NCBI GenBank assembly: GCA_025927545.1
Contig: JAICLE010000005.1
Span: forward strand, 720 to 64,719
Direction: 5' to 3'
DNA length: 64,000 bases
From: Gemmatimonadales bacterium
Lineage (GTDB): Bacteria > Gemmatimonadota > Gemmatimonadetes > Gemmatimonadales > GWC2-71-9
The notes below the pieces were generated by a model, which had not been told where the DNA came from, ran no database searches, and saw only the letters and a program-made list of their open reading frames with translations. A program made the translations under genes and the position numbers. Shown one piece after another: positions 1 to 50,548 of this stretch; position 1 is the stretch's first letter, and each line of letters begins with the position of its first letter.

Positions 1-192
1 ATGGTCGTGTACCACCCGGCCAAGCGGCAGGAGGGGCTTCGTGATGGGAACCTGAAAGAGCTGTTCGACGAGGAGATCAAGAAGAGCTGGGAAGAATACG
101 CGGATCAGGTCGGCAAGGACGTGGCCGATACCACGCCGTACTTCCGTGAAGCCCTGAACGAGATCCTCGCCGGCGGCCGCCAGGTCTTCTAG
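1..192 (+). CDS. C-terminal end of a hypothetical protein (truncated by window edge)
   Basis: Open frame with host-like codon usage ending at TAG 190-192; helical sequence LFDEEIKKSWEEY...YFREALNEIL. Confidence 0.75.
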   Translation: MVVYHPAKRQEGLRDGNLKELFDEEIKKSWEEYADQVGKDVADTTPYFREALNEILAGGRQVF

Positions 193-48739: not shown

Positions 48740-49531
48740 ATGCGGGGCAGGCATCTGATACTGGCGGCCGCCGCTGCGGCCATGGGGAGCGCCGGGGCAC
48801 CATCCCTGGCTGCCCAGACGGGCTTCAACGGCGTCATCACGTTCACGCAGGATCGCGACGGCAAGCCCGCCACATTCGTGCAAACCACCAAGGGTCGGAA
48901 GGTACGGCTGCAGGGCTTCGGCAGTGACTCCGGCGCGCTGATCGTCGATGGCGATGCCAAGGTCATGATGATGGTGAATCCGAAGGAGCAGCAGTACATG
49001 GTCATGACGGACGAGGATGCGAAGCAAATGGCCGCGATGGCGGAGCAGATGAAGGCGAAGCATGCGGAGGCGGACCGGGGTCAGATGAGCTTCACCAATA
49101 CGGGGCGCCGCGAGACGGTGGCCGGCGTACCGTGCGAGGTGTGGCACGGGACCTATTCGGGCGGTGAGAGCGACGAGAAGCGGGAGGGCGATGCCTGCAT
49201 GGCCAAGGGTGTCGGGTTCGCCCTGGCGGAGATCACCCTGGGCAATCCTATGCTGCAGCGCGGCGCTCCGGGCTGGTCGCAGATGCAGCAGTACCGTGAC
49301 CTGGTCGCCGGGGGCAAGGGCATCCTCAGGGCGACGACGACGAAGGACGGCAAGGTTACGACCGAGCTGGAGGCCACCAAGATCGAGCCGAAGGTGGTGA
49401 GTGACGACGCGTTCAAGCCGCCCGCCGGCTACAAGGAAATCCGGATGGGCGACATGATGCTGAAAGCGCAGAACGCGATGCAGGAAATGCGGGACAAGAT
49501 GAAGGCCAATCAAGGGAAGTCGCAGCCGTAG
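48740..49531 (+). CDS. Secreted DUF4412-like protein
   Basis: AAGGAG RBS, signal peptide, F.GVITF, TGRRETVAGVPCEVW, FKPPAGYKE. Confidence 0.8.
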   Translation: MRGRHLILAAAAAAMGSAGAPSLAAQTGFNGVITFTQDRDGKPATFVQTTKGRKVRLQGFGSDSGALIVDGDAKVMMMVNPKEQQYMVMTDEDAKQMAAMAEQMKAKHAEADRGQMSFTNTGRRETVAGVPCEVWHGTYSGGESDEKREGDACMAKGVGFALAEITLGNPMLQRGAPGWSQMQQYRDLVAGGKGILRATTTKDGKVTTELEATKIEPKVVSDDAFKPPAGYKEIRMGDMMLKAQNAMQEMRDKMKANQGKSQP

Positions 49532-49540
49532 CACCCGCAC

Positions 49541-49575
49541 GCCGGCCGGCCGCAATCGGAGCGCGGTCGGCCGGC
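49541..49575. terminator. GC-rich stem-loop between convergent transcription units
   Basis: GCCGGCCGGCCGC / GCGGTCGGCCGGC 13-bp stem with one GU pair. Confidence 0.55.
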
Positions 49576-49595: not shown

Positions 49596-49623
49596 GCGAC
49601 GTATAAGATATGTTATGTTAAGT
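49596..49623 (+). other. dif site (XerC/XerD chromosome dimer resolution site)
   Basis: GCGACGTATAA-GATATG-TTATGTTAAGT versus E. coli GGTGCGCATAA-TGTATA-TTATGTTAAAT (XerD arm 10/11); located where gene orientation switches. Confidence 0.9.
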
Positions 49624-49628
49624 TCGCG

Positions 49629-49664
49629 TGCGGATATCTGTGGAGAACTGGGCGGTTCTCCACC
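49629..49664. promoter_or_regulatory. DnaA-box-like 9-mers / 9-bp inverted repeat next to dif
   Basis: TGCGGATAT (49629), TGTGGAGAA (49639), TTCTCCACC (49656); consensus TGTGGATAA/TTATCCACA. Confidence 0.45.
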
Positions 49665-49672
49665 CACCGCCG

Positions 49673-50548
49673 CTATTTCGTTGTGCAATTGGGAGTTACG
49701 GAAGCCGGTGCCGCAGGGTCGAAACCGTCGGCTTCCCAGACAGCGCGGAACACCAGCTTGCCTTGGCCGCCGAGCCAGACGTTTGAGGCCCGATCGCCGT
49801 TCAGATCGGCCTCGACCAGCAGGGGCTCCCCGCCCCGGCTTCTCAGAGTCACCGGGAGCGAGGCCTCGCCCCGGGCGGCCAGAAGCAGCCCGGCGGCCAC
49901 CGTGCCGGTGCCGCAGGCCAGCGTCTCGCCTTCGATGCCTCGCTCGTAAGTCCGGATCAACCACGGCTGGCCCGCGGGTCCGGGCGCCACGAAATTCACG
50001 TTGGCACCGGCAGCGCCGAGCCGCGGACTGAAGCGCAGGCTCCGCCCGCGGCCGAGCAGGTCGATCCGCTCGATGTCATCCACCCGGACGACCAGGTGCG
50101 GCACCCCGACCTGGGCGAACCCCATCCAGCGCTCGCCGGCGGCCGGCTCCAGTCCCTCGACCTCACGGGCGACCTCGAAGCCCGGCAGCCCGATTTCCGC
50201 CTGGTCGCCTCCCACGGGTGCGCGTGCGCGGACGACGCCGGCATCCGTGAGCAGGCAGAGCTCGCCCGGCGGGACGAGCTCCAGGTGGACGGCCAGCCGC
50301 GCGCTGCAGAGTGCCGCGTTGCCGCACATCGCCGCGCGCGAGCCGTCGGCGTTCCAGTACGTCATGCGGATCGCGCCGGGCCCCTCGGGCGTCAGGATCA
50401 CGAGGCCGTCCGCGCCCACGCCGGCGCGGCGGTCGCACAGCGCGGCCACCCGCGCGGCGGGCCACGCCTCGGGAACCGCCGAGCGGCCGTCGAGCAGGAC
50501 GAAGTCGTTGCCCGACCCCGTCATCTTGTGCACGATGGTTCCTCTCAC
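49673..50548 (-). CDS. dapF: Diaminopimelate epimerase
   Basis: KMTGSGNDF, GVGADG, NADGS.A.MCGN, GVPH, NVNF, RTYERGIEGETLACGTG; GTGA overlap start. Confidence 0.95.
   Translation of the reverse strand: MRGTIVHKMTGSGNDFVLLDGRSAVPEAWPAARVAALCDRRAGVGADGLVILTPEGPGAIRMTYWNADGSRAAMCGNAALCSARLAVHLELVPPGELCLLTDAGVVRARAPVGGDQAEIGLPGFEVAREVEGLEPAAGERWMGFAQVGVPHLVVRVDDIERIDLLGRGRSLRFSPRLGAAGANVNFVAPGPAGQPWLIRTYERGIEGETLACGTGTVAAGLLLAARGEASLPVTLRSRGGEPLLVEADLNGDRASNVWLGGQGKLVFRAVWEADGFDPAAPASVTPNCTTK

Follow-up and report, generated by a model that had tools for sequence, protein, structure and literature searches.

Why should sequences resembling DnaA boxes lie within a few base pairs of dif, the recombination site of the chromosome terminus? 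The question is raised by a stretch of 64,000 nucleotides from a bacterium of the Gemmatimonadales, an order with cultured members; this whole stretch is called the window below. A sequence-only reading of the window noticed three such 9-mers beside dif and proposed a possibly undescribed terminus element. If DnaA binds there, the last step of one chromosome cycle would be tied to the protein that starts the next, and whether, and by what route, completed replication or cell division influences the following round of initiation is an open question.

Results

The dif locus is the replication terminus

The dif sequence of the window, GCGACGTATAA GATATG TTATGTTAAGT, has the 11-6-11 layout and is single-copy, the 3.48-Mb assembly (G000) containing no other dif match. 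Its arms are near-invariant within the window's genus, and we assigned them to XerC and XerD by what we take to be their likeness to E. coli dif. The locus is composed as follows.

49596..49623, plus strand: dif, with the XerC arm at 49596-49606, the 6-bp spacer at 49607-49612 and the XerD arm at 49613-49623
48740..49531, plus strand: DUF4412 gene (PF14371), on the XerC side and transcribed toward dif
49541..49575, plus strand: GC hairpin of 13 bp after the DUF4412 gene, fold -30.8 kcal/mol, without a U-tract
49673..50536, minus strand: dapF (PF01678), on the XerD side and transcribed toward dif

On the window's own contig, KOPS motifs number 10 on the plus and 2 on the minus strand to the left of dif but 0 and 4 to the right, and the skew switches sign at dif. 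A single-contig relative (G057), sampled in 20 pieces of 20 kb, gave 19 plus and 6 minus KOPS before dif and 5 and 19 after it, the skew being positive in 9 of the 10 pieces ahead of dif and negative in 7 of the 10 beyond it. The distance from dnaA to dif, furthermore, is 42% of the chromosome in G057 and ~47% in the other single-contig relative, G183. Because skew and KOPS converge at dif and dnaA lies far off, the dif locus is the replication terminus rather than oriC. Genes for XerC-like, XerD-like and FtsK-gamma proteins are encoded in G000 (catalytic domains scanned); its xerD is truncated at a contig end, and XerD is present at full length in relatives. We also noticed that xerD (G000:C79:76250-76762) and dif are ~26 kb apart, the gene being on the XerD side; in many relatives the distance is roughly 18-60 kb.

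The DUF4412 gene stands beside dif in 11 of the 31 genus loci and in none elsewhere. The GC hairpin that follows it is its probable 3' end signal; contigs from RNA libraries of two studies stop at 49512 and 49525, although these are small-share contigs and cannot show 3' ends.

Boxes beside the XerD arm

On the other side of dif, offsets being counted from the XerD arm, the following features were found.

49629..49637, minus strand: box 1, TGCGGATAT, 2 mismatches, pointing toward dif
49639..49647, minus strand: box 2, TGTGGAGAA / TTCTCCACA, 1 mismatch, at +16; the core conserved DnaA-box-like site
49649..49657, minus strand: third tandem slot at +26, decayed in this genome
49656..49664, plus strand: inverted box, TTCTCCACC, 2 mismatches, pairing with box 2 into a 9-bp hairpin; sporadic
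49674..49698, plus strand: AT-rich site resembling the IHF consensus, from +51, overlapping the dapF stop and last codons

The coordinates and mismatch counts (2, 1 and 2) that the sequence-only reading gave for its three 9-mers were correct on recheck, and so was their start 6 bp from the XerD arm (49629 against an arm end at 49623); box 1 thus starts at +6, with 5 bp between. Its additional weaker box at 49682, TGTGCAATT, is not retained: this motif has more than 3 mismatches from TTATCCACA, lies within the last codons of dapF and overlaps the IHF-like site. Triples of boxes (at most 2 mismatches each, within 40 bp, total at most 5), as defined after this site had been seen, occur at 2 places in 3.48 Mb. 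When scored with a two-box matrix built on 30 genus relatives, the own genome being left out, the window's site reached 27.0 bits as opposed to 13.2 at the next best place of the genome. Some strain variation was observed inside the element: contigs from two other runs, 99% alike, have G at 49631, which makes TGGGGATAT and is closer to the genus consensus, and also G at 49703, and one of them has an extra C after 49662.

Conservation of the boxes and their phase to dif

For the survey of relatives, dif was retrieved by its own pattern, blind to the boxes, its flanks were fetched, and boxes were counted at no more than 1 mismatch to TGTGGANAA, a mask derived from these same sites. The count excludes four genomes of the genus without a fetched dif flank (G004, G015, G020 and G035), duplicates, matches unlike dif, and genomes in which no dif was clear (nine in the class; 8 of 17 in other classes). 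A box at +6/7 or +16/17 from the XerD arm was present at all 137 dif sites of the Gemmatimonadales (own genus 37/37, other f1 genera 61/61, f2 29/29, f3 10/10), whereas the mirror position on the XerC side had one in 1/139. The boxes are accordingly conserved and phased to dif, and a lack of conservation, which would have counted against the proposal, was not seen. Beyond the order, f4 (1/1) and f8 (2/2) have the box, and four outside groups have it at none of 31 sites (f7 0/14, f6 0/7, f9 0/1, other classes 0/9). With the plain E. coli consensus at up to 2 mismatches, box 2 was found at 130 of the 137 order sites and at 0 of the 31 negatives. Box 2 (+16/17, at most 1 mismatch) occurs at 129/137 order sites, the remaining 8 retaining box 1; box 1 (+6/7, same threshold) occurs at 79/137, including 34/37 in the genus, where most box positions carry 1.5-2 bit and the five spacer bases a near-random 0.2-0.6 bit.

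The stop codon of dapF ranges from +28 to +342 among relatives (three loci in this survey gave implausible frames) while the box offset varies by 1 bp, and family f8 keeps the boxes at 2/2 loci without dapF within 1.5 kb. The boxes are therefore locked to dif, and neither to dapF nor to the hairpin. This bears on the idea that DnaA might be a polar roadblock shielding XerCD-dif from read-through of the dapF operon or from the fork. In most order loci the boxes indeed separate the dapF stop from dif, and the interval contains no conserved hairpin; DnaA reportedly acted as an orientation-dependent transcription block in older E. coli work. A shield needs no bp-exact offset from XerD, however; the box stays where dapF was not detected, and genes converge from the XerC side as well, which has no box. 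We consider such a roadblock improbable.

The 9-bp inverted repeat of the window is real and, as the sequence-only reading held, a poor terminator, no terminator-like site having been found. Its inverted box had been regarded as a core part but is sporadic (6/140 dif loci with at most 1 mismatch at +30..40), and a perfect stem of at least 7 bp was found in 5/31 genus loci and 0/39 others. Instead of compensatory changes that keep the hairpin alone, then, the hairpin is lost and the boxes stay. An intrinsic terminator was rejected, since the hairpin is not conserved and has no U-tract; a second origin at dif was rejected as well, with dnaA opposite, skew and KOPS converging, and DnaA-trios in the dnaA-dnaN gap. 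While the hairpin is stable in this genome (z -2.9) and the boxes point to an AT-rich stretch, as oriC boxes point to DnaA-trios, a U-less dapF terminator, a second origin or mere chance would be a very improbable account of the element: the boxes outlast the hairpin in most relatives, dnaA is 42-47% of the chromosome away in the two single-contig relatives, and dif is without a trio run, the trio-bearing oriC being in the dnaA-dnaN gap.

Two parts are genus-level additions, namely the +26 box and the IHF-like site. A third tandem box (+26/27, at most 2 mismatches) was found in 19/31 genus loci and 1/39 other box-positive loci. An IHF-like site, scored with the consensus in the available part of PMC8407004 (at least 6 of 8, at +51..54), was found in 31/37 genus loci, as compared with at most 4/37 in control bins; the window scores 6 of 8, and G000 encodes two HU/IHF-family genes.

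On a DnaA tree of 36 rows, the box label needs two changes, which would most simply be one gain at the class core and one loss in f6+f7. The many genomes therefore represent few independent events. The element is real and under selection, and it is its function that we infer.

The layout recurs outside the Gemmatimonadales

We then searched GTDB with a pattern of dif and an exact box at +14..+44, which fixes the side and orientation of the box; the offset range was partly guided by earlier observations. The scan gave at least 120 stretches, 80 of which were listed. Among the 80 matches listed, 33 belong to the Gemmatimonadota lineage (with records of HR33 and Longimicrobium, which we take to be Gemmatimonadota), all at +16 (20) or +17 (13), 13 to the Acholeplasmatales/Izemoplasmatales at +39 (12) or +38, 4 to the Omnitrophota at +22 and 2 to the Acidobacteriota at +37, the 28 others being scattered. 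The records of the same layout among those listed are Gemmatimonadota, mostly Gemmatimonadales, and many adjoin dapF and TPR-gene homologues; the Clostridia matches among those listed are scattered and mostly not dif-like.

In the Acholeplasmatales, a box-blind count on 30 loci out of 53 matches (order of one Acholeplasmatales-type record) found a box with at most 2 mismatches at +38/39 in 29/30 loci (at most 1 in 19), the best other offset reaching 6/30. This box has the same side and orientation but is about two helical turns further out. These flanks (L369-L398) also share a conserved TGCG-like motif, which precedes the +39 box and lies at +21..24. Draws of 71 genomes each from an Acidobacteriota class and from the Omnitrophota, with 30 loci each, showed the layout to be confined to small subclades; many matches in the Omnitrophota draw were not true dif. 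In one Acidobacteriota subclade (L294-L298), three DnaA-box-like sites of reversed orientation lie +14/+22/+33 from the XerD arm. The dif-box layout thus recurs yet is far from universal, being patchy outside Gemmatimonadales and Acholeplasmatales.

DnaA as the candidate binder

DnaA very probably occupies the dif boxes, judging from the motif and the protein repertoire. The free position of the motif is base 3 of TTNTCCACA. DnaA domain IV (PF08299) was found in exactly one protein in 29/30 genomes and in two proteins in none; DnaA, one of the binders that the sequence-only reading supposed, is hence the best candidate, being the sole domain-IV protein found and having boxes with a matching pattern of variation. 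The recognition helix aligns with domain IV of E. coli DnaA (1j1v; SKAR/SKRR and GGRDHSTVIH/GGRDHTTVLH). The recognition region has T->S and P->V changes relative to E. coli, and the exact specificity of DnaA is therefore assumed; roles of R399 and T435 in the E. coli protein are described in PMC5742627, as far as its available text goes.

G000 contains 10 exact motif copies genome-wide, with five others intergenic and four apparently in coding sequence. Four of the intergenic copies are upstream of dnaA, holB, ribonucleotide reductase and Ku, and one follows an M23/bactofilin pair. Across five near-complete genomes, exact copies number 17-67 per genome, near the reversed-pattern control, on both strands. 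A landmark of the KOPS/matS type was thus rejected, the motif being at background level, unpolarised and not ter-enriched.

These data also bear on whether another terminus protein binds the motif, its likeness to a DnaA box being likeness only. In favour of this, boxes at oriC show more degeneracy than those at dif in these genomes. The variation pattern nevertheless matches DnaA boxes, copies lie before dnaA, nrd and holB, the motif is neither enriched nor polarised genome-wide, unlike matS/KOPS-type landmarks, and the same 9-mer recurs in Bacilli. Another binder is therefore hardly probable in our judgment, and we continue with DnaA.

Comparison with oriC

The oriC of these genomes lies in the dnaA-dnaN gap, where arrays of degenerate boxes are accompanied by a trio-like run (CTACTACTGCTGCTA) and a stretch rich in AT, a layout comparable to that of B. 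subtilis with its DnaA-trios (PMC13220808, available text). In G000, this gap (C93; L061, L344) has DnaA-trios and is without a box within 1 mismatch of TTNTCCACA. When fit to TTNTCCACA was compared in box-positive genomes, the best dif box was better than the 300 bp after dnaA in 30/35, tied in 5 and worse in 0; comparison with the organism's own oriC boxes, which had been suggested as a check, hence showed the latter to be weaker and more degenerate. Also, exact boxes in the 300 bp after dnaA occur in 0/35 box-positive but 10/15 box-negative genomes. This contrast of weak oriC and strong dif boxes is a hint, given the few independent lineages, the misfit of f6 and f9, and an exact box upstream of dnaA. 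The other box triple of the genome was considered as oriC and rejected, as it is the Ku promoter (G000:C130:40075-40143, L367), where an IHF-like palindrome and four DnaA-box-like sites were observed. We furthermore noticed a 651-aa protein (L368:2341-4296, G000:C142) that combines two AAA+ domains of the DnaA type but lacks domain IV; on ORF reading, its gene directly follows roadblock/MglA-like genes. It is present in most order genomes, ~220-290 kb from dif in five long contigs.

The contrast with oriC is one reason to ask whether the site acts on DnaA instead: boxes together with a bender (XerCD or IHF) might act as a catalytic site of the datA/DARS kind, or as a high-affinity seed for an oriC with weak boxes, active upon replication or processing of the terminus. 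In the genus, indeed, co-oriented boxes are followed by the IHF-like site and sometimes by a distal co-oriented box at +94/95 (7/37), an order of parts that resembles boxes 7-2-IBS-3 of datA as given in the accessible part of PMC5742627. But dapF ends at +29/30 in many genera, leaving one good box and no intergenic room for IHF; datA requires three boxes plus IBS, DARS requires an opposed box, and DARS2 moved beside terC was impaired in E. coli (all PMC5742627, in part). One to three sites, moreover, would hardly titrate much DnaA, and the oriC contrast comes from very few independent lineages. On balance, we find it rather unlikely that the site acts on DnaA, but of the alternatives to the reading favoured below this is the strongest.

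Discussion

The reading that we favour is that DnaA, bound on the path of FtsK to XerD, may gate dimer resolution until it is displaced; we would rate it somewhat below an even chance. One to three co-oriented boxes, 5-25 bp from the XerD arm, would be occupied by DnaA, which would then stand where FtsK must dock to switch on XerD. Its occupancy would alter the activation of XerD by FtsK, and passage of FtsK or of the fork would clear DnaA from the boxes; chromosome unlinking is therefore proposed to be sensitive to the state of DnaA. That occupancy changes this activation and that FtsK or the fork clears DnaA may be about half as probable as the occupancy itself.

The gate is favoured because of the phase to XerD together with the XerD-side activation, footprint and stripping known for FtsK. 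Activation of XerD by FtsK takes place from the XerD side and depends on the 2nd-9th bottom-strand nucleotides adjoining the arm (PMC2673442, in the part available); set against this footprint of 2-9 nt, the start of box 1 is at +6 and that of box 2 at +16. A bp-exact phase to XerD suggests a physical role at XerCD-dif, while timing or titration would not need phase. FtsK also strips DNA-bound proteins and displaces even streptavidin (PMC2868570, available text), and the DnaA gate could be weak for this reason. Some findings speak against the gate: the boxes at +39 (Acholeplasmatales) and +22 (Omnitrophota subclade) are outside the 2-9 nt footprint, the latter also off phase, and the box orientation is reversed in one Acidobacteriota subclade. 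Also, the box is dispensable, since f6 and f7 without it keep XerD and DnaA. In a comparison of XerD between box-positive and box-negative proteins, no surface feature tracking box presence was found. An LKD patch in the N-terminal domain of XerD was rejected as box-specific, being present in 24/24 box-positive but also 7/26 box-negative proteins.

A bolder, doubtful extension is that a composite DnaA-XerCD-dif complex serves as a cell-cycle coupling device, evolved more than once, with a hand-off to oriC triggered by FtsK. Here, the tandem DnaA site with the best consensus on the whole chromosome would be the one at dif, and the arrival of FtsK at division would release or re-prime DnaA for use at an oriC whose own strong boxes were lost; the independent origins would be in Gemmatimonadetes, Acholeplasmatales and subclades of other phyla. 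The candidate is ~25 bp long, single-copy and mutable without touching a gene, families f6 and f7 are natural negatives, and Acholeplasmatales are an independent repeat.

In the literature searched for DnaA boxes beside dif (most subscription journals being outside the search), no paper describing such a layout was found, nor did these papers reveal any DNA element that connects the initiator with the machinery of resolution. The supposition of an undescribed terminus element is consistent with this: the parts are known and their joint, not found in print, would be new, provided that DnaA binds.

Comparison with known systems

The site resembles the E. coli-type dif/XerCD/FtsK-KOPS system in its single-copy 28-bp 11-6-11 dif, its skew/KOPS switch and the presence of XerC, XerD and FtsK-gamma, but differs in having a conserved, protein-binding-like motif at a fixed XerD-side offset. 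The available text of the dif survey PMC3025954 has no mention of "DnaA", and that of an Azospirillum study (10.64898/2026.09.14.751567) reports no conserved accessory sequence beside dif. Plasmid Xer sites also have the site of a host regulator at a set distance from the Xer core (ArgR/PepA at cer; ArcA/PepA at psi). Their accessory sequences, as described in the accessible part of 10.1101/2024.04.05.588136, belong to plasmids, measure about 200 bp, flank the XerC arm and act independently of FtsK, whereas the motif here is of the DnaA type and takes up 10-30 bp beside the XerD arm of a KOPS-flanked dif on the chromosome.

With datA (DDAH) of E. coli, the site shares co-oriented tandem boxes and an IHF-like site, in the window's genus only. 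While datA needs boxes 7, 2 and 3 plus IBS within 183 bp (PMC5742627, in part), the order-wide core here consists of one or two boxes in fixed phase with the dif of the terminus, and no datA-like positional signal of IHF or a distal box was seen outside the genus. DARS1 and DARS2 are likewise non-origin clusters of two or three DnaA boxes; in their core, box I is opposed to II and III at fixed spacing (PMC5742627, same part), but the conserved dif boxes are co-oriented, and the occasional opposed box occurs at varying offsets. B. subtilis also has DnaA boxes away from oriC, in clusters that may tune initiation and for which the available text of PMC13220808 describes no tie to dif, whereas the boxes here are few and phased to a recombination site. 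In its defining features, therefore, the dif-box element differs from oriC, DARS and the cer/psi accessory sequences, and in one genus it is datA-like.
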